A stretch of DNA of 64,000 nucleotides from Candidatus Omnitrophota bacterium (GTDB lineage: Bacteria > Hinthialibacterota > Hinthialibacteria > OLB16): NCBI GenBank assembly GCA_020632575.1, contig JACKFH010000006.1:10117-74116 (forward strand). Direction: 5' to 3'. The notes under the pieces were generated by a model. It ran no database searches and was not told where the DNA came from. It saw nothing but the letters and a program-made list of their open reading frames with translations. A program made the translations under genes and the position numbers. Shown here one piece after another: positions 12,059 through 64,000 of this stretch. Numbering within the stretch: the stretch's first letter is position 1; each line of letters starts with the position of its first letter.

Positions 12059-12075
12059 TTTGGCGTCCCGCCCAA

Positions 12076-14751: not shown

Positions 14752-14755
14752 TCCG

Positions 14756-18945: not shown

Positions 18946-18996
18946 GTTCGTTCTTCCCTCCCCATTTTGATCTTTTCCGCTATATTGAAACTCCGA

Positions 18997-36167: not shown

Positions 36168-36212
36168 GATTCGCCTCCAATTTGCCGGTCGCAACCCGTG
36201 GATTCTATCATA

Positions 36213-38373: not shown

Positions 38374-38421
38374 TTAGATTTAATCTTCGATCTCTCCGCA
38401 AAGCACCGGTGAAGACCTTGT

Positions 38422-39081: not shown

Positions 39082-39150
39082 ATCGTTTACTCCCTTCGAT
39101 TTTTGTCGATGGAGCCGAGACCTTAGTCTCCCAACAGAAGACTGAAGCCT

Positions 39151-40724: not shown

Positions 40725-40737
40725 GACCGGGAAATTC

Positions 40738-42438: not shown

Positions 42439-42486
42439 TAGCTTCCCGCCTGCAATATTTATAAGGGCCTCATGGGTGAGACAGCC

Positions 42487-43173: not shown

Positions 43174-43286
43174 AGGCTGGGGACAATAACGACCCGATTG
43201 CTGGTTCGTCAACCGCGGTAGGGCTCGTAGTCCAAGAAATAGGGCTGCATCGATTCGATCAACTCGCCGAAAATAATGGAATCGAG

Positions 43287-44369: not shown

Positions 44370-44956
44370 AGACACCAGAGAAGCAGATTCTTGATCTCCA
44401 TCTCTTGAATTTTCTCCAACAGATCCACCACCTCCGGCGGTTCTTTCCCACGGACCGCCTTCTCGCATCGATCCACGAAACCGAAAGCGTCCCAGCCCCC
44501 AACCTCCAATTCGCTCTTGAAAGTCTGCGAATACCCATCGCCATAATCCCGGAGCAAGAGGACGGCCGCTTCGGCGAGAGACCGATATGCCGCGTGATCC
44601 CCCACTTTCCGAAACCAGTATTTGGCATTGCCGAAATCGGGTTCGCGACGGTGCATGATGCCATGCCAGTAGGAGCCTGTCGCCGAGTGAAGGCTCTGCG
44701 ATAGCGTGTGCGAGGGTTCAAGGGCGTCGTTCCACAATAGCAATCCGCTCTGAAAGCAGAGCGCGAGTTCGAGGTCGGCTGGAACCTCGACAAAAATCTC
44801 CTCCGGCGAGGCCGCCGATATCTCAGAGGTCAGATAGGAGTCCCAGTCCGAGCTCGGCGCGAGTTCGGGTAGGGGGTCGCGATTCCCCAGTTTATCCACC
44901 CAAGCGCGGGGGCGGTCCTGGAGCGGTTTCTTGATTTCTTCAATTGGCATTTCCAT
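44357..44956 (-). CDS. Hypothetical protein (199 aa)
   Basis: Long ORF with protein-like composition, convergent with the acyltransferase gene. No recognisable family. Confidence 0.45.
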   Translation of the reverse strand: MEMPIEEIKKPLQDRPRAWVDKLGNRDPLPELAPSSDWDSYLTSEISAASPEEIFVEVPADLELALCFQSGLLLWNDALEPSHTLSQSLHSATGSYWHGIMHRREPDFGNAKYWFRKVGDHAAYRSLAEAAVLLLRDYGDGYSQTFKSELEVGGWDAFGFVDRCEKAVRGKEPPEVVDLLEKIQEMEIKNLLLWCLQNG

Positions 44957-47944: not shown

Positions 47945-49447
47945 TTATTCCAATTTCTTTTCACCCTCTCGAGCGGATTCAATGGCGTCAATAAGCAGAT
48001 TGGCGTTCTTGAGGAAGGTGGCGGTTCTTATTCCGCGAAACTTCTCCGGAGGGTTGTTCATATAGTCCACCGTATTTGGAAAAGTCAAATCCTCCACCCA
48101 AGCTCCCCTCTCGTCCAAACTGGAGATGACACCCTCAACACTCTCTAACGCCACCATTGGGGAGCTCGGAGCGCTTTCAATCTCCCGCTTCGCTCGGGCA
48201 ATCTCCGATTGTCCCATCTTGGTCAAGCCTTGATAACGCTCCCACATCGCCTTCGTGTTCAGATTGAAAGTGTACCCATATCCTCTCAGAAGGTTTTCCG
48301 GGTTGTGGTCGTTCCAGTATCGACCGGTCTCTTTGGTTGTCCCCTCACGATGACCGTAAATTGGCTGATTCGTTCCAATCTCGATGAAAGTGGCGTGGGT
48401 GTGGCCCTCCGTCGAGTGACTTTTGGGAATGACCGATGCCTCCAACCATTCGATGGCGGGTGGTATCGCATCCAAATAACGTCGGTCTCCCGTCTCCAGA
48501 AAAAAATCTCCCAACGCGCTAAGGTTGTGCACTGTATCCAAAGTGGAGAGGGCGACAGGCTCATACGAACGCGCGGCGGCGGGCTTGAGGTCGAGACCGT
48601 ATTGCTGAGCCCACCCCGCCTGGGGGCTCGGCAGTTGCGAAAGGAGGACAAAATCCATCCCACGTACTGCCGAACGACGGTAGCGATCATCTCCCAACGC
48701 CCGGTAAGCCTCCAAAAGAAATCGGATGTTTCCGAGAATGACATCGTCATTGAAGGTGTAGTACTCCGTGTAGTCGATATCCCCATCTGTCAGCTCTTCG
48801 GGATCGAGTGGATATCTTTGAGGCCAAGCCCCATTTGGATATTGCGATTGGAGAAAGAAATCGAGCGCCTTCAACAAAACTTCCTTGTAGACCGGCTCGC
48901 TGGTCTCTTGGTATAGGTGGAGCAGGAAGCGAGTCGCGTCGACTGTCACACTGTCATCGAAGGTGCAGTTCCCATAGTTGTGATAAAACTCCTCCCACCC
49001 CCAACATCGGAAACCGACCTCCTCATACCACTCCTCGGTTCGATCCGGTTCGAAGTCGATAAAGTAGTGCCAACCGCCGGAAGGGTGCTGCCCGTAGATG
49101 AGCGCTGAGGCGACTTTCTCCGCGGCCCCGAGGTAAAATTTGTCCCCGGTAACCCGATAGGCGCGGAGCATCGCCTCGCCGACACCGACCGTCGCGGGAT
49201 CCTGCACCCAAATCATCGTCTCTCTGGCCGGCAGTTCTCCCCAGCGCCGGGAAAGGTCTTCGCTGTAAATCATGACGAACCCGCCTCGGTAGGCCACTTT
49301 GTCCATCATGAAATGGCAACTTCGATCAAGGGCCTCCCGCAGCTTTGTATCGGGATCCATCGCAAATGACGCAGTCCAACATAGAAAAAGTTGGGCGCCA
49401 ATAACGATCCACTGTCTTCTGAATAGGCCGGTTCGTTTGTCCGTCAC
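47945..49447 (-). CDS. Pectate lyase, PL10 (PelA/Pel-15E) family, secreted
   Basis: GTG start with a GGGGGA RBS. QYPNGAWPQRYPL and YTFNDDVILGNIRFLLEAY match conserved PL10 blocks. Confidence 0.7.
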   Translation of the reverse strand: MTDKRTGLFRRQWIVIGAQLFLCWTASFAMDPDTKLREALDRSCHFMMDKVAYRGGFVMIYSEDLSRRWGELPARETMIWVQDPATVGVGEAMLRAYRVTGDKFYLGAAEKVASALIYGQHPSGGWHYFIDFEPDRTEEWYEEVGFRCWGWEEFYHNYGNCTFDDSVTVDATRFLLHLYQETSEPVYKEVLLKALDFFLQSQYPNGAWPQRYPLDPEELTDGDIDYTEYYTFNDDVILGNIRFLLEAYRALGDDRYRRSAVRGMDFVLLSQLPSPQAGWAQQYGLDLKPAAARSYEPVALSTLDTVHNLSALGDFFLETGDRRYLDAIPPAIEWLEASVIPKSHSTEGHTHATFIEIGTNQPIYGHREGTTKETGRYWNDHNPENLLRGYGYTFNLNTKAMWERYQGLTKMGQSEIARAKREIESAPSSPMVALESVEGVISSLDERGAWVEDLTFPNTVDYMNNPPEKFRGIRTATFLKNANLLIDAIESAREGEKKLE

Positions 49448-49540: not shown

Positions 49541-49569
49541 AAAAAAAACGGCCGCCAATTTGGCGGCCG
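49541..49569 (-). terminator. Rho-independent terminator of the secretin gene
   Basis: GC stem cggccgcc...ggcggccg (49549-49569). On the minus strand it is followed by U8 (plus-strand A8 49541-49548). It lies 29 nt after the stop at 49598. Confidence 0.8.
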
Positions 49570-49597
49570 TCATCCAATTTCTTTTTGTTTCGTTGAA

Positions 49598-52500
49598 TCA
49601 GTCGTCGACAATCAATCGGGCGGTTACAAGAATGAGAAGATTCTGAGTGGTCTCCACATCCGATTTGTCGGTGAAGAGGAAGGAAAGTCCGGGGATGAAG
49701 CCAAGACCGGGCAAACGACCCTCGACATGATTCAACTGACGGCGCAGCAATCCACCGATCACTAGGGTGTCGCCATCGTCGACTCGAACCCTTACGGTCG
49801 CCCGACGGGTCTGAGTGCTGGGACGCCCCTGTAAGGGATTGCCGTTCGCGTCGAAGAGCACCAGTCGATCGCCGGGAATTTCCAGTTCCGGTTCGAGATT
49901 CATTTCAATGTGTCCATCGCCAGTCACACTCGGTGTGACAATGAGGGTGAAACCGAATTCCTCGAAGTCCGTGTTGACCTGCTGCGTGGTGGTTTGGTTG
50001 TTACCGCCGGGCTGCGAGACGTTTTGGGTGTCGTCGATGAAGGGGATTTCCTCGCCCAAGAAGACCTCGCCCTCCGCGCCGTTGACCACAGTGATCTTGG
50101 GGGCCGTTAGGATTCGGATATCCGTGAAGCGAGACAACATGGAAAGAGTCGACTCGATCCGAGTCCGGCCCAAAGTAGCCAAAGTGAGATTCGATCCGCC
50201 CGGGTTGCCCGGCTGACTGTCGAGAACCAAACTTCCGTTGGAGGTCGTCAACGAGGGGCCTTCCCCGCCGTCGTCGATTTCCAACAAGTTGTCGATCGTC
50301 ATCTGGACACCCAACTCGTCATTCGAATTGTATTGAAGTTCGACAAGACGGGTTTCCACTTCGACCTGGTCGACCGGAAGGTCGAGCCGTTCGATCAGTT
50401 CGACCGCTCGCTCGATGTCCGAGAGACGCGAGCCGGTGATGATCATCGTCTTGGTGGAGATATCGCCTTTCACAATAACGGGGATGATTCCGAGGAATGA
50501 GAAGGCCCCTAAACCTCCGCCGAAGCCGCCGCCAAAACCGCCGGCTCCGCCGATTCCACCGCCAATTCCGCCGATGCCTCCGCCAATCCCTCCGATACCA
50601 CCACCTATGCCGCCAATTCCCCCGCCGATTCCACCGCCAATTCCGCCGATGCCGCCACCGAAACCGCCTTGGCCAATGCCTGGCTGCTGAGTTCCGCCGA
50701 CACCCGCGCCACCAACGGGTTGACTAATCAAAACCGCTAGCACGAGCCCTTGCAGTGAGTTCGCGATATCGACAACTGAACGCTGCCGGACCTCGACGAC
50801 ACGCGATAAACTCGTCGTTTCAGTGATTCCCGTTAGGTACTCTTGAATCTTGGCCAGATTCTCGGGGGTGTCGACCACGTCGATCGTCCCCTCATCCAGG
50901 TCGGGATACATGACTCGCCCCTCGGCCGCCGCCTCTTCGATACTCTGGCTGCCGTAGAGAAGGCTCTGGAAAACTTGTTTCGTGAAATTCACCTGCTTCC
51001 GGCGTCGGAGCACGGCGTCCGGGGTGTCGGTGCGCAAATCCTCGGCGGGCACAACGGTGAACTTTCTGGCTTTAAGTTCGCGGTCGACAACCTTGTCGAT
51101 GAATTTGGGATCCTGCATGAGCCGCTTGACCAACTCTAATTTCTCGGGGGTCTGACGGATCATGAGAAGGCCAGATTCGTTGTCGTACACCAGGTAAGGA
51201 TCCTGGTCCGAGAAGTCGGTGTCGATTTCCGCTTTCCCGAATAGACGCAAGTTGATGATTTTCGCCAAATCCTCGCCACCGGTCTGCGGGAGACGGAAGG
51301 TTTCGACCACCATCGGCGGTTCGACCAGGTCGATTTCATCGCGTCGATAGAGATCCAGGAACTGGCGCACGAGATCGACATTGTAACGGCTGTCGCGGAC
51401 CACGAGCTCGAGAAGGAATTTGTTGAGAATGAAGGTGCGACCGGGAACTTGGGCGTCGATATTCTTCTTGATTTCGTCGGTTTCGACTTTGCCCAGCACG
51501 ACTTCGCGAAGCGCCTCGGAATAATCGTCGGTCTCTTTCCCGCCAAGCGCTCCCATCGCAAGCCGCTTGAGCGCCTGGTACTGCTCCTCGGTTAGCGGGA
51601 ACCTTTGGGTGATGATATCCCGAGTCACCTCAATGATGTTGGTCCCGGGTTGACGCTGCCAGGTGTAACCGTTGAGTTTCAAAACCTTGTCGAGAAACTC
51701 GCGGTAGGTGAGTTCCGTTGTCCGAAGGGCGTTGATTTGTCCATCGACCCCCTCGCCGGTAATGATCTGCAAGTCCGCGATAGCGCCCATGGTCGACAAG
51801 ATTTCGTTCACGTTCACCGGTGTGGATTGCTCCAGGACGAAGGTCTTTTCGTCAAGCACCCTCGAGACCCTGTCGTCAACTTCCTCACGTTGGGTGTCCA
51901 TGGCCAAACGACGGTCGGCTTCGGCCTTCTCCTCGGCGTACTTGTCAAGGAAGGCGCGCGCAACTTGGTTGTTTGGCTCGAGCTGGATGGCTCGCTCCCA
52001 CAATTCATATCCGGAAATGATCCGTCCCTTTTGGACCTCGCTGATTCCCTTTTCGATAAGAAGATTGACTTCGTCGTTCGGGGATGAAGTGATGTTAACT
52101 TGGTTTTGTGGGGCGGGCGCCATCGGAGCGCTATTCTGGGGAATTGGGCTTGGAGCGGTCGCCGAGTCGGCTTGGGCGACTGTGTAGTACGATTCCTCGG
52201 AGCCGATCTCTCTTAACTTTTCGGTCGTGCCGGGCGAGTCCTGGAACCACGGGTCCACAGCCTTGGCGGGGGCTGATTCGACTCTTCTCGCCTCTCTTTC
52301 GATTGGCGGAGTCTCCATCCCATTTACGGGTCGAATAACTTCGGGTCGATCGGGAGATTGGTAATCGAGATCGAGACTCGCCACCTTCATCGAATCTTCC
52401 ATTTTTTGGCATTCCAGATAATACCGCTGCGCCGCCGGATGGTCCGGAACCTTTCCAAGGACCTTCCGAAACATCTGACGCGCCTGAGAGTAGTTGCCGG

Positions 52501-53440
52501 CGTTGAACATTTGCACGCCTCTGTCGAAATCGGGTGCGATTTCGACGAGCAGGTCGCCGCGATCACCTTGTTTCGCATTCTGCGCATCAACCACTTGGGT
52601 GGCGCGTTTGGATTCCAATGCCAACAGACGAGTCTGCGCGTCTTTGGAGTTCGGGAACAGACGAAGCACCTCGCGATACAGGTTCGCGGCTTTTTCCGTA
52701 TCCCCCGCTTGCTCCGCGACAAAGCCCTCGGAAAACAATTCAGCCGCCTTCTCCAAGGCGACATCCTCTTGCATGGAAGCGTCGTCGCTCGTCTCCTCTG
52801 GAAGCAGCAACTCCCCGAGGTTGTTCGAGGAGGGCTCATTCATCGCGACCAGCTGCGGGCGTGAACTCGAACGCGTTCCGCTGGCGGCCGACCGAGCTTC
52901 TTCCAGTCCTCGTCGCGCCTGGACATTCGTGGGGTCAATGCTCAAGACCTGCTGGAAAGAAGTCTCGCTCGAGGCGTAATCGCCCCTCTTGAGCGCGGCG
53001 ATTCCTTGAGCGAGAAGATTGTTCGTTCCCTCATCGATTTGGGTGAGACGGGCATCTCTTTCGCGAGCGCTCATCGAGGCGCGCCCTTCGGCTTCCTCGA
53101 TCATTCTCGCAGCCATTTTGGCGTTTTCGAGTTGTTTGCGGAGGTTGGAGGCAATGCTGGAATGCACGGGAGATTGCTCCCAAACGGAGATGGCCGAATC
53201 CGCCTTGGGAAACTCGCCGCGCTTGATCAGGTTCTCGATCTCTTGGATCGGCAGTCGTCCCCCAGGGGTCGCCTGGGTGTGAACCGCGCCGACAGACGTC
53301 GCGCTTTCAGCAAGCACGGCGGGAACCGGGAGCGCTCCTATCAGAATTGTTGAAAGAGTGATAATTGTCCCTACAACCCCGAATACCCCGTTTCGATTCC
53401 TCGCGGTTGCGGCACAGACCCTGCCCATGCGGCTGTGCAT
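49598..53440 (-). CDS. pilQ: Secretin (PilQ/GspD family) with N-terminal TPR-repeat domain and internal Gly-rich (GGIGGIG)n insert
   Basis: C-terminal secretin core (TAPKITVVNGAEGEVFLGEEIPF.., VRVRVDDGDTLVIGGLL.., LPGLGFIPGLSFLF). About 5 TPR-like repeats in the N-terminal 500 aa. I prefer the start at ATG 53440 (GGAGGA 8 nt upstream, MHSRMGRV.. TM) over the listed 53482. Confidence 0.85.
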   Translation of the reverse strand: MHSRMGRVCAATARNRNGVFGVVGTIITLSTILIGALPVPAVLAESATSVGAVHTQATPGGRLPIQEIENLIKRGEFPKADSAISVWEQSPVHSSIASNLRKQLENAKMAARMIEEAEGRASMSARERDARLTQIDEGTNNLLAQGIAALKRGDYASSETSFQQVLSIDPTNVQARRGLEEARSAASGTRSSSRPQLVAMNEPSSNNLGELLLPEETSDDASMQEDVALEKAAELFSEGFVAEQAGDTEKAANLYREVLRLFPNSKDAQTRLLALESKRATQVVDAQNAKQGDRGDLLVEIAPDFDRGVQMFNAGNYSQARQMFRKVLGKVPDHPAAQRYYLECQKMEDSMKVASLDLDYQSPDRPEVIRPVNGMETPPIEREARRVESAPAKAVDPWFQDSPGTTEKLREIGSEESYYTVAQADSATAPSPIPQNSAPMAPAPQNQVNITSSPNDEVNLLIEKGISEVQKGRIISGYELWERAIQLEPNNQVARAFLDKYAEEKAEADRRLAMDTQREEVDDRVSRVLDEKTFVLEQSTPVNVNEILSTMGAIADLQIITGEGVDGQINALRTTELTYREFLDKVLKLNGYTWQRQPGTNIIEVTRDIITQRFPLTEEQYQALKRLAMGALGGKETDDYSEALREVVLGKVETDEIKKNIDAQVPGRTFILNKFLLELVVRDSRYNVDLVRQFLDLYRRDEIDLVEPPMVVETFRLPQTGGEDLAKIINLRLFGKAEIDTDFSDQDPYLVYDNESGLLMIRQTPEKLELVKRLMQDPKFIDKVVDRELKARKFTVVPAEDLRTDTPDAVLRRRKQVNFTKQVFQSLLYGSQSIEEAAAEGRVMYPDLDEGTIDVVDTPENLAKIQEYLTGITETTSLSRVVEVRQRSVVDIANSLQGLVLAVLISQPVGGAGVGGTQQPGIGQGGFGGGIGGIGGGIGGGIGGIGGGIGGIGGGIGGIGGGIGGAGGFGGGFGGGLGAFSFLGIIPVIVKGDISTKTMIITGSRLSDIERAVELIERLDLPVDQVEVETRLVELQYNSNDELGVQMTIDNLLEIDDGGEGPSLTTSNGSLVLDSQPGNPGGSNLTLATLGRTRIESTLSMLSRFTDIRILTAPKITVVNGAEGEVFLGEEIPFIDDTQNVSQPGGNNQTTTQQVNTDFEEFGFTLIVTPSVTGDGHIEMNLEPELEIPGDRLVLFDANGNPLQGRPSTQTRRATVRVRVDDGDTLVIGGLLRRQLNHVEGRLPGLGFIPGLSFLFTDKSDVETTQNLLILVTARLIVDD
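50509..50700. repeat. Coding minisatellite (imperfect ~18-21 bp tandem units ccgccaattccgccgatgcc) that encodes the secretin Gly/Ile repeat
   Basis: Directly visible tandem periodicity in the DNA. The antisense frame reads PPIPPPIPP. Confidence 0.7.
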
Positions 53441-53900
53441 CAAGTAAATCCTCCGATTATGGCGTAGATACGACGTCGACATTCGGCCTCATTAGAGGGA
53501 TGCGTGAGCAATGAAACCACATCCCCTTCTCTACCAAGTCTAGTTATCGTTGAGACTTAGCGCCAACTTAAGCCTTTTTATCGGCGTCTCGCTCTGCTGT
53601 TTTGAGGGTCAACATTCTCGACCCAAAATTTTCTTGGAGAATCCAAGAATTCCCATTTGTTTAACCCGCGCCCTTGAGCGCTTGAGCAATTTAAAACCTA
53701 ACCTCTCCCCGACTTTCCGCCAACGTCGAGAACACGATTCTAGCGACCCAAGATAGCGGTTGACAACCTAGTTCGGTTCCCGAGACGCCAATGCTACACG
53801 AAACGGGCTTGAAACGGAATCGGTCGGGGCTCCACCCCACCCGACCCTGAAATGAATTCGTTTCAGGCGCCGTCTCCTCGCTTTCTCAGTCGCCTCCGTT

Positions 53901-55406
53901 TCAGCGTTGAAGACTACTGATCCGAGCGTTCAATCGTTTAATCAGGTTCCTTAGCTCGTTATACTCGCTGCGCAGTTCCCCATACCCGGGAACGCGTCGT
54001 ATATCTTTCGTTCGCCCTTGAATTCCTTGAACTTCCGCCATTCTGTCGTTAATCGTCGAGAGAGTGTCCTGAGGAACTCGGCCACCCGAAATGTCTTCCT
54101 CCGCCTTATCGATCAGGGAGCGCACTTCTCGTAGTTTTTCGCGCATGTCCCGCACGGCGTCGCTCGCCTCGAGCTTGGAAAGGTTCGATTCCCATCTCCG
54201 TCGCTCGCGGGCGATGTCACCATCCGAGATCTTCAACACTTCCAGAATATCGTACAACCTCAGGATCTCCCGAATCCCCTCCACATCTCTGCCAGTCGCC
54301 TCGTCAGTGGCGAGTCGGGCGATCTCCTGTCGGACTCGTTTGACAATTTGGTCCTTGTTTTGGTCAAGATTGGCCTTCAGCTCATTCAACCGGTCAATCT
54401 GGCTCTGCGTCAGATAATCGCTGTTCCGCTCTTCCAATATCCTGTCGAATTGAGTCAAGGATTGAATGGCTTGCGACACCTGCTCCGGCTCCGAATCGGC
54501 GGTAATCGCGCTAACACGTCTGACCACGTCCTCATAACGCTGAAGAACAAGAGTCTTGTTGAGATTCTCTCGGGATTGCAGGAGTCGTTCATGCGTGTCC
54601 TCTAGCGAGGTGATCTGACCCTGCGTCACATCCGTCCCTTCGAGACAGGATTGATTTTGTCCCGCCTCTTGGATGCTTCTTTCGATCAAGGTGATTGTCG
54701 AGTCCAAAGACTCGATCGACTGAAGCAAATCGCCTCCGGTTTGACCCGCCGACTGCAGAGCCGCTTCCCCCTGTTTGGCCGCCTCGGAAATGGACCGGCT
54801 GAGTTCCGCGCATTTGTGGTTCTGCAGCAGGTTGACCGGCGGAGTCGGCCACTCCAACAACTTCCCTTGGGGATCGTCCTTCACATACTCTTCAAGTTTC
54901 TTGATCGCGAGCGGAATATTCCCATTTTTGACCGCGTCCTGATACTCCTCCCGAAGTGTGGTCAACCTTTTGATTAACTGGCTAAAATTGGCTGCTGGAG
55001 TGAAAACCGGGTGATAGGAAACCGGGCCGATTTCAGACTTGGGAACAGGAGTGAAATCGATATTTCCCGTGACGATGTCCCCGCCTTGCTCAGCCCCTCC
55101 AGGGGCGCCTCCCGGAACCCCTCCCGGCATACCGCCAGGTGCGCCACCCGGCATCCCCCCAGGCATCCCCCCCGGCATGCCTGGTCCTCCTGGAAGACCG
55201 CCACCGGGCATCCCCCCCCCGGGAACGTTCACTGGAGTCCGAACCTGATCCCCGTATTGGCCGATCCAGATGGATTCGGGCGATTGCCCGTCAATGGCCT
55301 GTGAGGTTTGCATGGCGATTAATATCGCCACACCGATCAGCACCATGATCACATAGTCGCGCACTTGCGAGAAACGTTGCACCAACTTCGCCAATAGTTG
55401 TTTCAT
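53901..55406 (-). CDS. Bitopic membrane protein with (GMPGG)n low-complexity linker and long coiled-coil periplasmic domain. Candidate PilO/PilP-like pilus platform component
   Basis: N-terminal TM VIMVLIGVAILIAM. PGGGMPGGGLPGGPGMPGGMPGG... repeats. Heptad-rich C-terminus. Sits between the PilMN fusion gene and the secretin gene. Confidence 0.6.
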   Translation of the reverse strand: MKQLLAKLVQRFSQVRDYVIMVLIGVAILIAMQTSQAIDGQSPESIWIGQYGDQVRTPVNVPGGGMPGGGLPGGPGMPGGMPGGMPGGAPGGMPGGVPGGAPGGAEQGGDIVTGNIDFTPVPKSEIGPVSYHPVFTPAANFSQLIKRLTTLREEYQDAVKNGNIPLAIKKLEEYVKDDPQGKLLEWPTPPVNLLQNHKCAELSRSISEAAKQGEAALQSAGQTGGDLLQSIESLDSTITLIERSIQEAGQNQSCLEGTDVTQGQITSLEDTHERLLQSRENLNKTLVLQRYEDVVRRVSAITADSEPEQVSQAIQSLTQFDRILEERNSDYLTQSQIDRLNELKANLDQNKDQIVKRVRQEIARLATDEATGRDVEGIREILRLYDILEVLKISDGDIARERRRWESNLSKLEASDAVRDMREKLREVRSLIDKAEEDISGGRVPQDTLSTINDRMAEVQGIQGRTKDIRRVPGYGELRSEYNELRNLIKRLNARISSLQR

Positions 55407-55449
55407 GATGATTTCGACTCCCGATCTCGGATCGCTCGTAGGGGCCCGA

Positions 55450-57456
55450 TCATCCGCCCTGAACCGGGGGGATCAATGTCAAGTCGCTGACCTCCATCTC
55501 GGCCTTGAGGAGGGCTTTCGCCTCCTGAGGCCCGATTTTGTAGGAACCGACCTCTTCTCTTCGGCTGGTTTGAAACCTGATTTCGTAGTTCTCTTCCTCA
55601 TACCCCAAAGCGGCGTCCCCCACCGCGCCGAGGATGTTCATCACCAGCACGGCTCTTTCGGCCTCGTTGACCGGATCCGGCGCCTCGACACCCAGGAGAA
55701 ACTTCTGCTTGCTGCCTTTTGGAGTGCTGTGGTCTTGAAAATAGACCTGGTAAACCTCCACTCCTCGGTTCGAAAGTTTCTCCCGGAGAACCGATTGCTC
55801 GGGGGAGGGGTCTTTTTCAATGCCCGCGGAAACCTTGAACTCCACCGTATTATCCGATCTCAAATCCTGTGAGGTGATGTTCGGAACCAGCAAGTGTTCG
55901 GCGGAATCCATTTGCTCTTTGAACGGCCCCAGGGTTTTGATATCCGTCCCCATTACCGTCATCGTCAGGTTCGTCGTGTCCGCGTCGACCCGAGTCAACC
56001 AAGTCTCACCCAAGGGGACATTGCTGGCCACATCCGCGAGAGTTTCAGAAATGACTCCCCGAGTCCTGTCGATTTCATTGAACAGCGCGAATCGGTCTTC
56101 CAGCAAGCGTGTGTTGTCCATGTATGTGCCGATTTGAGTCGCGATATCGTTCTTGGGACCGGCGCCGTCGGTCGGCCGCGCCAAGTGACGATCCAACTCC
56201 TGACGCGCTTGTTCGTAAAGCTCGATATTGGCTCGTACCGCTGAGATCGAAAGGAAGACAAAACATCCCAGCAGGATGCCCTCGACCAATAACCAAGTAC
56301 GCCGCTTTTCGAATTCTTTCTTGCGAACGATATAGGACGGCAGGAAATTCATCCGGAGGGGAACGTCGCCGATGTTCTTCTGGCACTGCCCCACCAGAAC
56401 GCCTGTGGTCTGGGCGAGAGGCTCAGAATCCAACTCGGAAACATTGACAAGCGTGTCCTGAAAAACGTCCGCCACTTCGCAAGGCGTCCCCAACCGTTGC
56501 TCAAGGTATTCCGCGATTCCGGGACACTGGGAGGTTCCCCCGGTCAGCAGCACCTTCTCCACTGGCTCGCCATCCGGTTGGGAAACATAGAAGTCGAGGG
56601 TCCTGCGAATCTCGTTAGAGATCGCGTCAAAGGATTTGGAAAGAAACACCTTCACACGCGCGGATTGGTCATCCTCCCCGTACGCTAGCGGATCGGTCTG
56701 ACGGTCGATCGAGGGGTCGATTTCACCCACAGTCACTTTCAATTCCTCGGCTTCGTCCCACTCGACACCGAGCTGGTCCGCGAGAGCCTTGGTGAGATGA
56801 TCGCCAGCCTGAGGAGCACTGCGAATAAACTCGACATGGCTTTCCCGACAGACCACGATGTCGGTGGTCGAGGCGCCGATATCGACAAAAGCGACCACTT
56901 CCTCGTCCGCCGCTTTCAATTGAGGGTAAAAACAATTGAAAAGACTCAGAGTCGTCACATCGATCGTGTCCGGCACCAATCCGGCCGATTTGAGCATCGC
57001 GCAGTACTGATCGACGATATTCTTTCGGATGGCGACCAGGGTGACCGCCAATTCGGGACCCGCCGTGTCGAAAACATGAGAATCGAGGATGATATCCTCG
57101 AGGGGGAATGGAATCTGTTGACGGGCCTCGTACTGAATCAGTCGATCCAGACGATCCCCGGACACTTTCGGTATCCGCAATTGGCGAACAAAACTCGCTC
57201 GACCGGGAATCGCGAAGGAAACTTGCTTGGCGGAAAGGCCGTGTCTTTTAAGGACTTCCTGAAGCAACACGCCACTGCGCTCGATCACCTCCTCGGGAGA
57301 TGCCGAGGGGTCGAGACCGGTCTTGACGGTGTAGACGGATTGAATCTTCGCCGATTTCCCCTTGACTCCAAGGGTTCCAACACCAACTTTTAGCGTGTGG
57401 CGACCCGGATCGATGACGACTAGCGAGGTGGATCCGAAACCGATCGACAAAGCCAT
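55450..57456 (-). CDS. pilM: Type IV pilus / T2SS inner-membrane platform protein, PilM-PilN(-PilO-like) fusion
   Basis: Actin-like PilM motifs (VVIDPG, VAFVDIGASTTDIVV, VLLTGGTSQCPGIAEYL). A TM segment WLLVEGILLGCFVFLSISAV plus coiled coil (PilN). An additional ~200-aa C-terminal domain. Confidence 0.75.
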   Translation of the reverse strand: MALSIGFGSTSLVVIDPGRHTLKVGVGTLGVKGKSAKIQSVYTVKTGLDPSASPEEVIERSGVLLQEVLKRHGLSAKQVSFAIPGRASFVRQLRIPKVSGDRLDRLIQYEARQQIPFPLEDIILDSHVFDTAGPELAVTLVAIRKNIVDQYCAMLKSAGLVPDTIDVTTLSLFNCFYPQLKAADEEVVAFVDIGASTTDIVVCRESHVEFIRSAPQAGDHLTKALADQLGVEWDEAEELKVTVGEIDPSIDRQTDPLAYGEDDQSARVKVFLSKSFDAISNEIRRTLDFYVSQPDGEPVEKVLLTGGTSQCPGIAEYLEQRLGTPCEVADVFQDTLVNVSELDSEPLAQTTGVLVGQCQKNIGDVPLRMNFLPSYIVRKKEFEKRRTWLLVEGILLGCFVFLSISAVRANIELYEQARQELDRHLARPTDGAGPKNDIATQIGTYMDNTRLLEDRFALFNEIDRTRGVISETLADVASNVPLGETWLTRVDADTTNLTMTVMGTDIKTLGPFKEQMDSAEHLLVPNITSQDLRSDNTVEFKVSAGIEKDPSPEQSVLREKLSNRGVEVYQVYFQDHSTPKGSKQKFLLGVEAPDPVNEAERAVLVMNILGAVGDAALGYEEENYEIRFQTSRREEVGSYKIGPQEAKALLKAEMEVSDLTLIPPVQGG

Positions 57457-57531
57457 ATCTCAAATTTCTCCCAACCGGAACAGTGACTTTAATTGGTACA
57501 ATACTAGACCCGTGACACGCGCCCTGTGAAG

Positions 57532-57554
57532 ATTGTATCAAAATATTTGTCAAG
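57532..57554 (-). promoter_or_regulatory. Candidate promoter with extended -10 (TGATACAAT) upstream of the pilMN fusion gene
   Basis: Minus strand TTGACA...TGATACAAT, about 75 nt 5' of the ATG at 57456. The spacer is short, so this is an extended -10 type. Confidence 0.3.
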
Positions 57555-57577
57555 TGACCCAACGGATCATGGGGGAA

Positions 57578-59302
57578 TCAGCGGACGGGGTCAATATCCG
57601 CCGAAAGATAATCTCTCCTAGGTACGATTGAGACGGTGGAGCCAATGGTTCCGTCCCGGGGAAACTCGGTGTCTCCCAGCACATCGGACCGCCGGTAACT
57701 CAGACGTGTCCCACTTTTCGAGGCCGGGGAGGGGTCCATGTGAAAATACACCGGCGTCTCCGCGGTTGTTTTTAGACCCTTGAATCGAATGGTCGCGATT
57801 GTCCCCTCTTTTTCGAACGCCTGACGAAACACCCCGTTTTCGTAAAGAATTCGCCCTTCATCCTGACGGACCAAATTTTGTCGCATCCAGTCAAAAGGAA
57901 AACGAGTATGGTAAGGACCATCCAGAATGTTCGTTCCGATCGAAACCCAATTCCCCTCGTCTTGGTCCACGACTTCCAGGAATCGAGGGTCGAAACGGAT
58001 GTCGAGGCGGATCTGATCCCAGGGAACCTGTTCCGGGTTCACCACCCGGACATTTAGGTCGAATTCCTTCCCCTCCTCGACCGCGGCGGCGGGGGGGTCC
58101 AACACAATCAGTGTCTTGAGTTCACCCTCGGGAACAGTGGTCTTCCTTTCGATCATCTCCTCCTTATCCAAAGCCTGCACGGTCACCCCGCCGCTAATAA
58201 CACCATCCTTGGAGTCGGTGGAGTCCCCCAACACATTCCTAAAGACCATTGGGCCGCCTTCCTCCGATTCCAAGAGACCCACATAGGTCATCTCCTCGGG
58301 CCAAGTCCATTCCTGATCCGACTGGATCGGAGGAGCCAACACCTCTGGCCATTCCGCGAAAAGAAATTGAATCGGCGAACGATCGGTTGGCGAAAGAACT
58401 CGGAATTTCATGGAAAGCACAAAACCTTGACCGGTTTCGGTCTCCCCGGAGGCGGATCGGGCACGGTAATAAATCATGCCGTTCTCCGTATCCGCACGAT
58501 TCAGGTAGAAGAGATCCTCACCTCGATCCCGAACGAAGTCGAAGGACTCCAGTGTCTTTTCGGACAGGTCGTACGAGGAATGAACTCCCGCGGTCCCACC
58601 GGGGGCGTCAATGAATTCGAGCACATCCGGATCGTACGAGAGCGCGAACGAAAGGACGTTGAACTCCTTTTCGAGCGGGTTGTCGAGCCAAACATGAACC
58701 GGAACAATCTCATCCACCGCGACCTTCTGCTGAAGCGGAGCCAACCGTAAAACGAGATCCCCCTGTAATGGGACGCCAACAGCCGCCTCTCCTTCCTTGC
58801 CTTGTCCGGGCGGAGTCTGACCGGGTGGCAGCGGCTTCGCTCCGGGAGGAAGCGCTCGACGGACCCCTGGAACGCCCGGTTGCGGAACCGCGGCGGGAGG
58901 TTGTTGGGGGCGTGGCGCGGGAGCGGGAGGCTCCTGCGGCTCCTGTTCTTGCTGGGAGGGCGCCTGTTGTTGGTTTTGATAATCCGGTGGGGGGGGAGGT
59001 TGATTGTAATCGTCCTCGTACCGTGTGGACCGACGGCTGTCGCGAGACCGACGGCTCCGGAAAACGGATTCGTCGCGACCAGCGCCAAACCCCTGACACC
59101 ACGCTGTCTCCTCGTGTCCGCCTCCGAAGAAGGGGATGTCTTCGCCGGGAGCAAATATGAAAAGCGCCGCCAAGGCGCACTTCGCCGCAGCACCGATGCG
59201 CACGCACGTGCGTGCGTCCCTCGGCGACACGAATAGCGCGCGAATGGATTTGAGATTTGAGAAATACAAGATCACTGACCCCACCTTTCTTTGCAGGGGC
59301 AT
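57578..59302 (-). CDS. Tandem cohesin-domain protein with Arg-rich and Pro/Gln-rich N-terminal region
   Basis: Two cohesin-like modules (LSFALSYDPDVLEFIDAPGG...IQFLFAEWPEV, and DLNVRVVNPEQVPWDQIRLDIRFDPRFLEVVDQ). The start is uncertain (ATG 59302 or GTG ~59203). A signal-like ALAALFIFAPG segment. Confidence 0.7.
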   Translation of the reverse strand: MPLQRKVGSVILYFSNLKSIRALFVSPRDARTCVRIGAAAKCALAALFIFAPGEDIPFFGGGHEETAWCQGFGAGRDESVFRSRRSRDSRRSTRYEDDYNQPPPPPDYQNQQQAPSQQEQEPQEPPAPAPRPQQPPAAVPQPGVPGVRRALPPGAKPLPPGQTPPGQGKEGEAAVGVPLQGDLVLRLAPLQQKVAVDEIVPVHVWLDNPLEKEFNVLSFALSYDPDVLEFIDAPGGTAGVHSSYDLSEKTLESFDFVRDRGEDLFYLNRADTENGMIYYRARSASGETETGQGFVLSMKFRVLSPTDRSPIQFLFAEWPEVLAPPIQSDQEWTWPEEMTYVGLLESEEGGPMVFRNVLGDSTDSKDGVISGGVTVQALDKEEMIERKTTVPEGELKTLIVLDPPAAAVEEGKEFDLNVRVVNPEQVPWDQIRLDIRFDPRFLEVVDQDEGNWVSIGTNILDGPYHTRFPFDWMRQNLVRQDEGRILYENGVFRQAFEKEGTIATIRFKGLKTTAETPVYFHMDPSPASKSGTRLSYRRSDVLGDTEFPRDGTIGSTVSIVPRRDYLSADIDPVR

Positions 59303-59414
59303 CCGGCTTCACTGTCACCGCCACTCGAATCTGAAGACCGGATTGAAAGGTTGAGGATTCTCCCCCGACTTCGCTCGATAACACCGGGCTCAATCAATGT
59401 CATCGGCAGAAGTA

Positions 59415-60395
59415 TTATTCGCGCTTTAGACGATATTTGTCAATCTTACGATCCAGAGTCGGTCGAGATATCCCCAGAATTCTCGAAGCCTGAGTCTTAT
59501 TCCAGTTGAGGTGGTCGAGAACCCTCTTAAGATGACGCGCCTCGAGCTCATCGAGCGAAATCATTTCGACCGCCCCGTCGCCTCCTCTACGCCCCCCCTC
59601 GCTCGAGCCGAAACCGGAATCGGTGAACGTCGTGTTGGGCAAATGTTCCACCCACACGGTCGAGCCATCGGCCATCAAGACCGCGTGATGAATGACATGC
59701 TCCAACTCGCGGACATTCCCCGGCCAAGCGTGGCGCTTAAGAACCTGGAGCGCCGCCGGTGAGATGGTTCGCACTTTCTTGTCGTACTGACGGTTGAAGA
59801 CCCCAATGAAGAGTTCGATCAATGGCTCCAAATCCTCCAACCTTTCGCGAAGCGGAGGAATTCGAATGCTCACCTCGTTCAAACGGTAAAAGAGGTCCTG
59901 TCGGAAATCGCCCTTGGCCACGAGATCCGATAGATTTCGATTGGTCGCGCAAACCACTCGGATATCCACCGGGATGTCCTGGTTGCTACCGATGCGTTGG
60001 ATAGTCTTTTCCTGAAGTGCTCGGAGAATCTTGGCTTGGGACTGAAGCGCCATGTCCCCGATTTCGTCCAAGAAAATTGTCCCGCCGGAAGCGGATTCGA
60101 ATTTCCCCTCACGAGTCGACACCGCCCCCGTGAAGGCCCCCTTCTCATGGCCGAATAACTCGGACTCAAGTAGGGCGCTCGGCACCGCCGCGCAATTCAC
60201 CGCCACAAAGGGCCCCTCGGCTCTTCGACTCGACAGATGAATTCCCCTCGCGAAGAGTTCTTTACCCGTCCCGCTCTCCCCCGTGATCAATACTACCGCT
60301 CGGCTCGGAGCAACCTTTTCCGCCAGAGAAATCAACTCATGCATCGAGTCGCTTCGATGTACTATCCGGTCGAGCCCAAATCTTTCGCCGTCCAT
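59415..60395 (-). CDS. Sigma-54-dependent transcriptional activator (bEBP AAA+ domain plus Fis-type HTH, no receiver/sensor domain)
   Basis: Walker [15 protein letters not shown] motif. C-terminal [16 protein letters not shown]. Start candidates are 60395 (GGAG upstream), 60440 and 60473. Confidence 0.8.
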
Positions 60396-60482
60396 TTTGT
60401 CCCGCTCCGCACTCTTGCCGTTTTCCAAGTGAATCGGCATACTGGTGATGGAGATTCGAGGGGAGTGTATCATTTCTTTTCA

Positions 60483-61979
60483 ATGCGGTCAATTTTTAAG
60501 TCAATAAAGAAATCCCTATTACAAACTTTCGCTCTCTCCGCCCTCCTTGTCCCAATCATCGCGGCAACCACGGTCCGCGACGGGGCCTGGGCGGTGACGG
60601 ACTCGGATTTCGCCCGCATCTTTCGACCCGAGGAGAGTTGGTCGGTGGTGATCGCCGACGCCCAAAACGGGCGAGTGGTCTACCGACAAAACCCCCAAAC
60701 TCCCCGGATGCCCGCCTCGAATCTCAAGGTGTATGTCACCGCCGCCGCCTTCGACCTCCTCGGCAGTCATTATCGTTATCGCACCCCTTTCCTGGTGCGA
60801 GGGAAACTCAGCCCACAGGGAGTTCTCGTGGGAGACCTGTTGGTTCGTGGGAGTGGAGACCCGACATTCAGCGGACGATTCGAGGAAGACTCGAAGGATG
60901 TCACCGCTCGATTCTCCCGCTGGGCCGACCGAATGAAGGAACTTCATATTCGCACGGTGAAAGGGAACCTCTACGGCGACGACAGCATCTTCGACAAAAA
61001 CTATTGGGGAAGAGAATGGCCTGAGGATGAATACTGCAATTGGTACACCGCGCCCTCAGGCGGGTTGATTCTTAACGATAGCTGCCTCGATATTGGAGTC
61101 TTCCCCGGGACCGCCGTAGGGTCTCCGCCTAGGATCGAGACCATTCCCGATACGAAGTATCTCCGCATCGAAAACAATGCGCGGACCATCGCGCGAGGAC
61201 AGAAGAACGGTGTCAGCTTCCGGCGCCCCTTCGATTCGAACGATCTCGCGATGTATGGAAAAGTCGCCGCCGACTCGAGAGGGACTCAACATGTGGTCGC
61301 GTTGACCGACCCGACAGGTTACTTTGTCAATGTTCTTAAAGAGACCCTAGAGAAAGAAGGAATCGAAATCCTCGGCGAGGCCAAGGACGCTCGCGAGGAA
61401 CCCGACCTCCCGCGTCACGGCTGGAAAGTCTTAACCATCGAAAACTCTCCTCCGTTGAAAGAATTGGCGAAAGTCATCAACACCCGCTCGCAAAACCTCT
61501 TCGCCGATTCGCTCCTGAAGACCTTGGGGGCGAAAAAGGCCGGGATGGGGAATTGGGCCGGCGGATCGATGGCCGTCCGGGAATGGGTCCGCGAGCAGGG
61601 TCTCCCTGTCGAGCACCTGCACCTGGAGGATGGGTCCGGCCTTTCGCGCTTGAATCGAGTGACCGCCGAAACCACCTGCGACCTCCTGCACCACATTCAG
61701 AAAAAACCGTGGTTCCCGCTTTGGAAAGAGACCCTCGCGGTTTCCGGTGAGTATCCCGGCTCACTGCGAAATCGTCTAAAGACCTCGACTCTCAAAGGCA
61801 AGGTAAGGGCAAAGACGGGTTACATCGACGATGTCTATTGCCTCTCGGGATATGTCGAGGCCAAAAGCGGCAAGGAATACGTCTTCAGTTTGCTTTTCAA
61901 TGGAAAATCCCACGCCGGCAAGCACCCCCACCACCGGATGGAGGAGGCGTTGACTTTGGTGGCGCGGGAGGAGCCGTAG
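60483..61979 (+). CDS. D-alanyl-D-alanine carboxypeptidase/endopeptidase, PBP4 (peptidase S13) family
   Basis: Signal peptide MRSIFKSIKKSLLQTFALSALLVPIIAA. SxxK (ASNLK). Family-typical architecture. The listed upstream extension overlaps the divergent EBP gene. Confidence 0.75.
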   Translation: MRSIFKSIKKSLLQTFALSALLVPIIAATTVRDGAWAVTDSDFARIFRPEESWSVVIADAQNGRVVYRQNPQTPRMPASNLKVYVTAAAFDLLGSHYRYRTPFLVRGKLSPQGVLVGDLLVRGSGDPTFSGRFEEDSKDVTARFSRWADRMKELHIRTVKGNLYGDDSIFDKNYWGREWPEDEYCNWYTAPSGGLILNDSCLDIGVFPGTAVGSPPRIETIPDTKYLRIENNARTIARGQKNGVSFRRPFDSNDLAMYGKVAADSRGTQHVVALTDPTGYFVNVLKETLEKEGIEILGEAKDAREEPDLPRHGWKVLTIENSPPLKELAKVINTRSQNLFADSLLKTLGAKKAGMGNWAGGSMAVREWVREQGLPVEHLHLEDGSGLSRLNRVTAETTCDLLHHIQKKPWFPLWKETLAVSGEYPGSLRNRLKTSTLKGKVRAKTGYIDDVYCLSGYVEAKSGKEYVFSLLFNGKSHAGKHPHHRMEEALTLVAREEP

Positions 61980-62015: not shown

Positions 62016-62547
<532 letters not shown>

Positions 62548-62569: not shown

Positions 62570-63106
62570 ATGCGCAATATCGAACTTAAAGCGCGTCTCC
62601 CCAACCGCGAACGCGCGATCCGGATCTGCAAGGAAATGTCCGGCGCTCGGTTCGAGGGAGACATCCGCCAAACCGACACCTACTTCAAGGTCCCGAAGGG
62701 TCGTTTCAAACTCCGCGTTTGCGAACCGGGGGAAACCTATCTCGTCTACTACGAACGTGAGGACGCGACCGAGGCAAAGGGGTCGGATTACCATATCGAG
62801 TTCGTTCGGGCGAGTGTTCGGGACGTCCTCGATCGCGCCCTGGGAACGATCGCCGAAGTGAGAAAGGTTCGCACACTTTATCTCTGGGAGAATGTGAGAA
62901 TCCATTTGGATCGAGTCGAGGAGCTGGGTGACTTCATCGAATTTGAAGCTGTGCTACGCCACTCCAACACCGAAGAAGAGGGTTATCGGAAGGTGGCTGA
63001 ACTGAAATCTCTCTTCGGAATCGAGAACACGGATCTGATCGAGGGTTCGTACTTGGAAATGGTGAATCCTATTTCGGCTTCCCATGAAAAAACGGTCGCT
63101 CCATAG
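62570..63106 (+). CDS. CYTH-domain protein (class IV adenylate cyclase CyaB / triphosphate tunnel metalloenzyme-like)
   Basis: MRNIELKARL..ERAIR N-terminus and a ~178-aa length typical of the CYTH fold. Confidence 0.6.
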   Translation: MRNIELKARLPNRERAIRICKEMSGARFEGDIRQTDTYFKVPKGRFKLRVCEPGETYLVYYEREDATEAKGSDYHIEFVRASVRDVLDRALGTIAEVRKVRTLYLWENVRIHLDRVEELGDFIEFEAVLRHSNTEEEGYRKVAELKSLFGIENTDLIEGSYLEMVNPISASHEKTVAP

Positions 63107-63153: not shown

Positions 63154-64000
63154 TCATTGCCACGTTGGCGATGTCTCCGAGGTCGACGCCGTCTCCCAAG
63201 GTCTCGGTTTCTCGTTCCACTCATTAACCTCGAAGAAGGCGATCAAACCGACATCCCCAAGCGCCTCGTCGTAGTGGAATTCCCCGTTCCCGCTGACATC
63301 GACCTTCCCGCCGACAGCCGCGCCATAAATATCGCCGCCACCAGTGAGAGTGATATGAGCGTCGGGTGCATAGATCACTCCTGCATACCCCGCTCCACCA
63401 TTGATGGTGATGTCCGTATCGAGCGTTCCGCTTGAGTAAATCATGAGTCGTTCGGGTGGACCGGACCCGCCATTGTTGACGACGGTGCCGCCATTCCAGT
63501 CCAAATTTCCATCCGTAAAGATCACCACATGGCCATCCACGATCAGATTGGAATTCCCTCCCAAATTCGAGGATGAAAGGTAGTAGACTTTGGGATTGTC
63601 CTGAGTCCCCCCCGGCAATGTGAGTGTGGCGCCGGAAACCACATTCAATTCTCCAGTGGACGGATTGAAGGCGTCCACCAATTGGCCGTTGCTTTTGACA
63701 GCTTGTGGGATATCCGCGTTATCGTTTTCGAGCTTCGCCGCATCGACCAGGGTGTTGACCGGAGGAAGATCGATCTTGGTCATCCCGCCTTCAACCTCGC
63801 CTGTGATTTCCGCGTTGTTTCCAACGAGCACCACACTCCCGCCGGCCGAGGCGTCGCCGTCGATGATCGGCGTCCCGTTCAGCAAGATGTCGTGGTTCGA
63901 CCCGGCGTCGCCATTGCTGTAGATATTTCCACCCACCCCATAAAAACCGTCGCGGGAATCGAAACTATCCACGACGGTCGTTCCGCCCAGTTCCAGGTCC
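63154..64000 (-). CDS. C-terminal part of a large secreted beta-helix/adhesin-like repeat protein (the N-terminus lies beyond the right window edge)
   Basis: The frame is open to the window end. Gly/Asn/Asp-rich beta-solenoid-like repeats (GGxGxxG..., NGGAGYAGVIYAPDAHITLTGGGDIYGA). Confidence 0.6.
   Translation of the reverse strand, partial: DLELGGTTVVDSFDSRDGFYGVGGNIYSNGDAGSNHDILLNGTPIIDGDASAGGSVVLVGNNAEITGEVEGGMTKIDLPPVNTLVDAAKLENDNADIPQAVKSNGQLVDAFNPSTGELNVVSGATLTLPGGTQDNPKVYYLSSSNLGGNSNLIVDGHVVIFTDGNLDWNGGTVVNNGGSGPPERLMIYSSGTLDTDITINGGAGYAGVIYAPDAHITLTGGGDIYGAAVGGKVDVSGNGEFHYDEALGDVGLIAFFEVNEWNEKPRPWETASTSETSPTWQ

Follow-up and report, generated by a model that had tools for sequence, protein, structure and literature searches.

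Which kind of envelope machine is encoded by a gene cluster that joins a secretin and a PilM-PilN platform to a tandem-cohesin protein and a sigma-54 activator? The cluster consists of five co-oriented open reading frames (ORFs) on the minus strand of a 64-kb stretch of DNA, referred to here as the window, from a Candidatus Omnitrophota bacterium (contig JACKFH010000006.1). Omnitrophota is a phylum of the Planctomycetota-Verrucomicrobiota-Chlamydiota (PVC) group; its members are uncultured, mostly ultra-small and suspected to be predators or parasites, and their pili and giant adhesins are regarded as mediators of host contact. A first-pass annotation of the window had read the cluster as a dedicated export or surface-display machine rather than as a type IV pilus module. 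The present analysis favors a different answer: with a probability of roughly 65%, the five genes encode the envelope-spanning part of a PVC-type type IV filament machine, either pilus-like or pseudopilus-like, in a lineage-specific variant. Judged by analogy with known systems, this would not be a new kind of machine, and we infer its function from that analogy.

A conserved module of five genes

Counted as maximal ORFs, the cluster runs from a sigma-54 activator (59415-60473) over a tandem-cohesin protein (57578-59302), a PilM-PilN fusion (55450-57456) and a helical bitopic protein (53901-55406) to a secretin (49598-53482). Gene callers and a conserved GGAGGA ribosome binding site indicate that the true starts of the activator, the cohesin protein and the secretin probably lie downstream of the maximal starts. 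An intrinsic terminator (49547-49571, minus strand), composed of an 11-bp stem with eight GC pairs, a 3-nt loop and a T-run, closes the cluster 27 nt past the secretin stop codon. The five co-oriented genes and the strong terminator of the first-pass annotation are thus borne out. Identical genes were retrieved by exact-sequence look-up on contigs of three metagenome-assembled genomes (MAGs) at NCBI (GCA_020430105.1, GCA_020430165.1 and GCA_020632615.1). The readable sequence of the source genome amounts to about 73 kb, comprising the window and 9 kb beyond its upstream end on a longer MAG contig (L006 in our numbering of loci).

The order of activator, cohesin protein, PilM fusion, helical protein and secretin recurs in loci L007, L008, L011, L013, L014, L015 and L016 and in the metagenome loci L091-L094. 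The proteins of L007 are 59-89% identical to those of the window, L008 is located on a 1.47-Mb contig of genome GCA_023150685.1, and the distant loci L013, L014, L015 and L016 share only 25-33% identity in the cohesin protein and 36-42% in PilM. In all 12 loci that contain a two-domain cohesin homologue and enough flanking sequence, the PilM fusion gene lies directly downstream of the cohesin gene. The activator gene is found directly upstream of the cohesin gene wherever that side is available, i.e. in 10 of 10 loci (window, L007, L008, L011, L013-L015 and L093-L095), and the activators of the nine relatives are 52-75% identical to that of the window. L014 contains two cohesin-protein genes in tandem in the same slot upstream of the PilM fusion (5926-9874). 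Other contexts provided only remote or one-domain cohesin matches (L010, L096-L103). The outer flanks vary completely between loci; L008, for example, has ferredoxin and arginyl-tRNA synthetase (ArgRS) genes where the window has a pectic-acid-lyase-like gene. Because the module order is kept while the outer flanks differ, the module itself is the conserved unit, and the sequence comparison supports the inclusion of the cohesin and activator genes in it. An unlinked cohesin gene in related genomes, which the first-pass annotation had named as a possible counterargument, was encountered in none of the 12 loci.

The PilM-PilN fusion and the secretin

The PilM-PilN fusion (55450-57456, minus strand; 668 amino acids) begins with a cytoplasmic, actin-like PilM domain, which is followed by an NFLP motif, a transmembrane (TM) helix, a periplasmic PilN-like region and about 120 C-terminal residues without an assigned fold. 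The PilM domain matches PF11104 with an E-value of 8.5e-38, exceeds the cut-off of TIGR01175 (166.9 versus 133 bits) and aligns with Myxococcus xanthus PilM (PDB 3JC8) at 7.9e-36. The best NCBIfam family of the fusion is NF045709, Amuc_1101_fam (5.4e-64), with 217 bits versus an equivalog cut-off of 650. Past the PilM domain, the NFLP motif at residues 369-372 is of the PilM-binding type found at the N-terminus of PilN, the TM helix spans residues 389-407, and a profile built from the sequence C-terminal to the PilM domain matches M. xanthus PilN (3JC8) at 9e-6. The Pfam PilN family reaches just an E-value of 0.014 on the fusion itself, and several homologues carry PF05137. The PilM and PilN assignments made at first reading are therefore sound, but the PilO part that had been added in brackets is not, because no match was obtained for the last 120 or so residues, which do not form a PilN/PilO-like repeat either (hhalign, 0.2%).

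The secretin (49598-53440, minus strand; 1280 amino acids) starts with an ATG at position 53440, and the GGAGGA ribosome binding site in front of it is kept in L007. A signal peptide is followed by at least four TPR-like (tetratricopeptide) repeats (about 51863-53065; TPR_2 at 2.7e-16, with matches to several TPR families), N0/STN-like and N domains, a split N3 domain and the secretin core (49610-50137), which Pfam Secretin recognizes at 4.5e-35 with 121 bits versus a cut-off of 27.5. The N3 domain is split by a (GGIGGIG)n insert with 53% glycine (50516-50698), around which Secretin_N is matched over residues 893-1039; the N0/STN signals are weak. Both the N-terminal TPRs and the glycine-rich insert had been noted in the first-pass annotation, and both hold. 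At the family level, the GspD model ranks first (1e-45; 156 bits versus a cut-off of 351), and PilQ (TIGR02515) and Amuc_1098 score 139 versus 284 and 86 versus 750 bits, respectively.

The poly-glycine insert occurs at the same position in the window and in L007 and is confined to these two loci; as a clade-wide feature it was rejected, since the poly-glycine stretches of other lineages lie at other positions. Such runs are present in secretins of PVC and Sumerlaeota loci (L020, L026/L034, L030, L032, L043, L047, L072, L087 and others) at three or more positions, about 190, 305-370 and 446-517 residues from the C-terminus. Their recurrence suggests repeated, independent low-complexity insertions into tolerant loops. 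The insert of the secretin and the glycine/proline tether of the helical protein described below are thus low-complexity expansions of recent origin rather than defining features of the module.

In front of the secretin gene lies a long intergenic region or leader (53441-53900, minus strand) with a sigma-70-like promoter match at 53766-53737. All seven loci compared (the window and six relatives) have a gap here, which measures 245-491 bp. The 3' part of the leader, about 200 nt (53441-53680), is highly conserved in L007 despite identities of only 59-89% in the flanking proteins; it contains two short hairpins and has a fold z-score of -1.96. The leader matched no Rfam family, and an Rfam search with the cluster and the long leader returned only sub-threshold leader models that overlap the terminator.

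Tandem arrangements of secretin sequences were observed in two related loci. L035 carries two secretin genes of 805 and 792 amino acids (9439-14240), and L063 contains two tandem ORFs of about 370 amino acids each with similarity to the secretin core (3155-6500).

Two lineage-specific periplasmic proteins

The exported tandem-cohesin protein comprises 541 amino acids (57578-59203, minus strand) when read from a GTG at 59203, within an ORF that extends to 59302. It is composed of a signal peptide, a GFGAGR..S[IV]F motif, an Arg/Ser-rich stretch, a Pro/Gln-rich linker and two cohesin domains, cohesin 1 (about 58178-58756) and cohesin 2 (about 57605-58111). Homologues share the Sec signal peptide and the motif (Q)GFGAGRSRDS[IV]F at the mature N-terminus. 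The linker of about 100 residues is disordered and contains 24% proline and 14% glutamine. Pfam Cohesin (PF00963) matches two stretches of the protein at 1.9e-10, with 41.5 bits versus a cut-off of 24.1. An AlphaFold2 (AF2) model calculated with 23 homologues displays two beta-sandwiches with a predicted confidence (pLDDT) of 81. In a Foldseek comparison with the PDB, the top match of the model is a type II cohesin dyad (3L8Q; E-value 1.4e-14), followed by dozens of single cohesins with TM-scores of 0.55-0.72. The two cohesin domains proposed at first reading are therefore real. Our literature search found no paper that combines the term cohesin domain with PilQ, PilM or secretin, and the cohesin dyad, which is genuinely conserved, appears to be undescribed in this context.

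No dockerin partner, carbohydrate-binding module or anchoring module was identified for the cohesin protein, and no bona fide dockerin is encoded in the 64-kb window, the cluster included. The only dockerin-like motif in the window is a C-terminal repeat in a secreted beta-helix protein (17101-18945, plus strand; SDVNVDGVVNETDLLLLLQDWG) with weak NosD, Beta_helix and Pectinesterase matches; its Dockerin_1 score is sub-threshold (E-value 0.0086; 16.7 bits versus a cut-off of 22.9).

The second lineage-specific component is a bitopic protein of 501 amino acids (53901-55406, minus strand). A TM helix at residues 20-38, with the N-terminus inside, is followed by a disordered Gly/Pro/Met tether (about 55071-55241; 44% glycine and 21% proline), the length of which differs among homologues, and by an all-helical periplasmic domain (residues 139-500; predicted pLDDT about 90). 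The TM helix and the tether agree with the (GMPGG)n/coiled-coil protein of the first-pass annotation. The coiled coil does not, as the predicted fold is a rod of serial three-helix bundles, and the all-alpha domain also rules out an identity with PilO. A word-based search with the full-length protein was probably swamped by the glycine/proline repeat and was hence repeated without it; an exhaustive phmmer search of 1.84 billion representatives with the repeat removed yielded seven relatives. In the distant loci, the protein encoded between the PilM fusion and the secretin is a member of this family too (hhalign probability 95.7%, E-value 9e-9).

Pilin-like genes and the sigma-54 activator

The argument that had separated the cluster from pilus modules was the absence of pilin, PilB/PilT ATPase and PilC genes within 10 kb. 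For pilins, this argument does not stand. At its upstream end, the window contains the 3' part of a gene for a PilX-like/DUF7305 adhesin that is cut by the window end (63154-64000, minus strand; N_methyl, DUF7305 and pAdhesive_15). On L006, the gene is part of two tandem paralogous cassettes on the same strand as the cluster (9453-15264, equivalent to 63154-68965 in window numbering), which are 61-69% identical to each other. Each cassette encodes a pilin-like protein of about 170 amino acids (GFTLVE), a pilin-like protein of 257 amino acids (GATL[IV]EL) and a PilX-like protein of about 455 amino acids, in which a PilX-type N-terminus is combined with a DUF7305/ice-binding-like adhesive domain. 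Thus, six pilin-like or PilX-like genes are found 2.7-8.5 kb upstream of the cluster, with N_methyl matches at or just below threshold; within the 64-kb window itself, no prepilin motif was detected.

The ATPase and PilC part of the earlier claim is correct and extends to the entire readable sequence. However, classical pilMNOPQ operons are normally located apart from pilB and pilC, for example in Pseudomonas aeruginosa. In addition, a PilB-type Walker A motif was found within 10 kb on either side in 0 of 16 related loci scanned, Akkermansia included. Isolation from the motor genes is therefore the norm for this type of cluster. The same 16 loci contain a classical pilin gene near the cluster only in L014, where it lies about 3 kb downstream of the secretin gene on the same strand (20126-20782; GFTLIELLIVVAIIGILAAIA). 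As the main argument against a pilus module fails on the pilins, and the separation from pilB and pilC is usual, the conclusion drawn from it is unsupported.

The activator is a sigma-54 enhancer-binding protein of 326 amino acids (59415-60395, minus strand; ORF extendable to 60473) with Sigma54_activat (PF00158; 3.9e-72), AAA_lid_14 and Fis-type HTH_8 (3.3e-13) matches and a GAFTGA motif at residue 112; it reaches no specific NCBIfam equivalog. Even in the maximal ORF of 352 amino acids, the AAA+ domain begins at residue 37, which leaves no space for a sensor domain. The protein is therefore sensor-less and receiver-less, as first described.

Within the cluster, no -24/-12 promoter (GG-N10-GC) with up to two mismatches was found. 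Sigma-70-like matches are visible upstream of cluster genes, and the match TTCACA-N18-TAGTAT upstream of pilM is kept in L007. The sole sigma-54-like site in a sensible place lies outside the window: TGGAAC-N5-CTGCT at 12177-12192 of L006 (minus strand; window-equivalent 65878-65893), with the pilin-like gene pil172 beginning 32 nt downstream of it. A weaker site, TGGAAT-N5-CTGCG, precedes the paralogue of pil172 (L006, about 15320-15335). The probability that a two-mismatch match falls at such a position by chance is approximately 1-2%. The position of the stronger site before a pilin-like gene fits, if weakly, a PilR-like role, in which the orphan activator would regulate pilin-type genes instead of its own cluster.

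A proposed type IV filament machine and alternative explanations

The proposed filament machine takes as its starting point the domain identities, membrane topologies and gene linkage described above, together with the finding that the PilM fusion and the secretin are homologous to Amuc_1101 and Amuc_1098 of Akkermansia, respectively. The PilM-PilN fusion would form the cytoplasmic and inner-membrane ring, with a GspL-like architecture, and the TPR-bearing secretin the pore in the outer membrane. The two lineage-specific periplasmic proteins, the tethered helical rod and the exported cohesin protein, would link the inner ring to the pore. The helical rod on its flexible tether may replace PilO or GspM as the partner of PilN or as a spacer. 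The cohesin protein could take the place of PilP or GspC as a tethered beta-domain connector to the secretin, because in it a long disordered linker joins a short conserved N-terminal motif to beta-sandwich domains. PilP and GspC are built in a like manner. The cohesin protein has no sequence match to PilP and no lipobox, but its combination of a signal peptide, a disordered linker and beta-sandwiches is analogous. The machine is expected to assemble a filament, for which pilins, a PilB-type ATPase and PilC would be supplied in trans from elsewhere in the genome. Most Omnitrophota encode type IVa pilus components (PMC10066038).

Several observations weigh against this proposal. No -24/-12 site with at least 7 of 11 matches was found upstream of any cluster gene in the seven loci, and none of the relatives was found to have the pilin cassettes close to the cluster. 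Neither PilB/GspE/PilT-type Walker A motifs nor PilC are encoded in the readable 73 kb. No PilO paralogue was recognized in the cluster by Pfam, NCBIfam or PDB matches, and a PilP homologue was not detected either. The secretin sequence would fit a type II secretion-like system as well as a type IV pilus and cannot decide between them, since GspD scores slightly better than PilQ and both stay below their cut-offs. Neither the cohesin protein nor the helical protein could be equated with Amuc_1102, Amuc_1100 or Amuc_1099, as NCBIfam gave no match and hhalign probabilities were 0.1-3%. Finally, all functional steps rest on analogy, and the machine is known here from its genes alone.

The cohesin protein could also be the cargo of the machine. 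In a pilus-independent system, the secretin would export the cohesin protein, which would display dockerin-tagged proteins on the cell surface in the manner of a Gram-negative scaffoldin. The cohesin fold is genuine and most similar to scaffoldin dyads, and its gene is always linked to the module; a cohesin-based display role is conceivable. Omnitrophota are reported to encode, beside type II secretion-like loci, giant proteins that contain dockerin-like repeats (bioRxiv 10.1101/2023.11.21.568195), and host-attached or predatory lifestyles are described for the phylum (PMC10066038). Within the window, the beta-helix protein at 17101-18945 ends in the sub-threshold dockerin-like repeat mentioned above. 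However, to our knowledge, PilM-PilN platforms occur only in type IV filament machines, and such machines depend on a filament or pseudopilus. The pilin-like genes are close, and clusters of this type typically have no ATPase genes nearby. In addition, a bona fide dockerin is missing from the window, and there is no indication that the cohesin protein gets beyond the periplasm. We therefore consider a pilus-independent display machine unlikely.

The filament machine itself could nevertheless make use of the cohesins as a docking station. The N-terminal motif of the cohesin protein would hold it at the assembly of PilN, the helical rod and the secretin, and the cohesins would recruit dockerin-containing proteins at the pore; candidate partners are the dockerin-type giant proteins of Omnitrophota or secreted beta-helix enzymes, such as the product of ORF 17101-18945. 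This extension of the filament proposal is tentative and rather improbable. If it is true, it would represent cohesin-dockerin display or delivery that is coupled to a secretin in a Gram-negative, possibly host-dependent nanobacterium. The cluster provides a testable hypothesis for the function of non-cellulosomal cohesins in Gram-negative bacteria.

Alternatively, the machine could serve uptake. Filament retraction would draw polymers or prey material into the periplasm, as has been proposed for mucin import by MUL2 of Akkermansia and for competence pili, and the cohesins would capture substrates or enzyme complexes at the pore. This explanation concerns the direction of use and is compatible with the anatomy of the filament machine proposed above. 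The nearest characterized relatives, the amuc_1099-1102 genes (MUL2) of Akkermansia, are needed for mucin uptake and for mucin products to accumulate (PMC12418764, PMC13174399). A pectic-acid-lyase-like gene (47945-49447) lies just downstream of the cluster, and beta-helix proteins are encoded in the window. Yet the lyase gene is not a conserved neighbor, as seen in L008, the accessory proteins have no homology to MUL2A, Amuc_1100 or Amuc_1099, and no retraction ATPase was seen in the readable sequence. An uptake function is thus quite doubtful.

The explanation that the cohesin and activator genes are unrelated neighbors of a divergent pilMNQ operon, for which intergenic gaps of 112-211 and 121 nt, the sigma-70-like matches before pilM and the secretin gene, suggestive of several transcripts, and the lack of a sigma-54 promoter in the cluster could be cited, is highly improbable, because linkage in 12 of 12 informative loci persists over deep divergence while the outer flanks change completely, L014 holds two cohesin genes in the same slot, and identities of 25-40% exclude very recent common ancestry as the cause of synteny.

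Genomic surroundings

The activator gene is divergently flanked by a gene for an S13 peptidase, a PBP4-like D-Ala-D-Ala carboxypeptidase (60483-61979, plus strand; Pfam Peptidase_S13). The peptidase keeps its place beside the activator in L007, L008, L011 and L093, with 40-78% identity. A role in peptidoglycan remodelling for the insertion of the secretin is conceivable. Between the cluster and the pilin cassettes follow a BrnT-toxin-like gene with a small BrnA-like partner gene (62016-62502, minus strand) and a CYTH-domain gene (62570-63106, plus strand); the trio is also found in L007.

Downstream of the cluster and the lyase gene, a hybrid histidine kinase gene is followed by a polysaccharide-biosynthesis island (about 36200-44400), which comprises GT2, WbqC-like, Acyl_transf_3 and hexapeptide transferase genes and several methyltransferase genes. 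Genes for oxidoreductases, a second hybrid kinase, glycosyltransferases and beta-helix proteins lie further downstream, and a GT4 gene and a carbamoyltransferase gene are located at 18967-21953.

Comparison with known systems

The cohesin protein shares with cellulosomal scaffoldin dyads, such as the type II cohesin dyad of ScaA (PDB 3L8Q), two consecutive beta-sandwiches of the cohesin fold, at an identity of 12-19%. In contrast to scaffoldins, it is found in a Gram-negative PVC bacterium and its gene is embedded in a pilus/secretin operon. The activator resembles two known types of sigma-54 enhancer-binding proteins. Like the PspF-type, of which PspF is a receiver-less example, it combines a GAFTGA-containing AAA+ domain with a Fis-type helix-turn-helix domain and has no N-terminal sensor. 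PilR, a sigma-54 activator of pilin genes, is likewise tied to pilus assembly genes, functionally in the case of PilR and by position in the case of the activator described here, but PilR contains a receiver domain that the latter lacks.

With the pilMNOPQ operons of M. xanthus and P. aeruginosa (3JC8), the cluster has in common the PilM and PilN-like matches, the secretin as the last gene and the separation from pilin and ATPase loci. PilM and PilN are fused in the window, however, no PilO or PilP is recognized, and the secretin carries TPRs instead of the AMIN domains of PilQ. The cohesin protein, the helical protein and the sigma-54 activator come in addition to the pilMNOPQ set.

The type II secretion system offers analogies in architecture. 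GspL consists of an actin-like cytoplasmic domain, a TM helix and a periplasmic domain, as does the PilM-PilN fusion, and in GspC a tethered beta domain makes contact with the N0 domain of the secretin. The GspD model is the top match of the secretin, yet far below its cut-off, and GspL gives merely a trace match on the fusion (E-value 0.092), whereas PilM passes its cut-off. An operon with gspE, gspF and gspG is not found nearby, and neither the window nor L006 encodes a GspE-type Walker A motif.

The closest counterpart is the Amuc_1098-1102 (MUL2) locus of Akkermansia muciniphila, which is regarded as pilus-like (PMC5332112, PMC13174399). A genome scan with an alignment of the PilM fusion recovered about 70 Verrucomicrobiota loci, including that of A. 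muciniphila (L034), in which all five Amuc families were verified and which, as a control, passed the Amuc_1101 and Amuc_1098 cut-offs; the order 1102-1101-1100-1099-1098 is retained in over 40 loci of Verrucomicrobia. Order and topology match those of the window: an exported beta-protein, a PilM fusion with one TM helix, one or more N-terminally anchored bitopic proteins and a TPR-containing secretin. Both loci are located apart from pilB and pilC, and Amuc_1098 contains N-terminal TPRs and a poly-glycine insert, which lies at another position. The differences are considerable. Similarity between the two secretins is confined to the core (33% over 137 residues) and a TPR motif, and the secretin of the window is about 400 residues longer. 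The Akkermansia locus encodes two bitopic proteins of about 330 amino acids instead of one of 501, and the Verrucomicrobia loci have no adjacent sigma-54 activator. Amuc_1102 was absent from the top 50 Foldseek matches of the cohesin model, and neither Amuc_1100 nor Amuc_1102 appeared in PDB sequence searches. Since the PilM fusion and the secretin score far below the equivalog cut-offs of Amuc_1101 (217 versus 650 bits) and Amuc_1098 (86 versus 750 bits), and profile comparisons reveal no similarity of the cohesin and helical families to Amuc_1102, Amuc_1100 or Amuc_1099, sequence comparison places the cluster as a relative of the Amuc_1098-1102 locus rather than as a member.

In Sumerlaeota and UBP4, loci were found in which the PilM fusion is paired with a secretin of 1288-1419 amino acids, but which contain no cohesin gene. 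The first-pass annotation had considered every component of the cluster atypical; fusion, secretin TPRs and poly-glycine inserts are, however, common to the MUL2 loci of Verrucomicrobia and to Sumerlaeota loci. As judged from these sequences, the PilM-PilN fusion and the TPR-secretin constitute a widespread backbone in the PVC group and neighboring phyla, around which the periplasmic accessory genes vary by lineage. One clade thus seems to have rebuilt the periplasmic part of a PVC-type pilus base on a backbone that it has in common with the medically studied Amuc_1098-1102 system, and the cluster provides a point of comparison for distinguishing the core of the Akkermansia machine from its replaceable parts.

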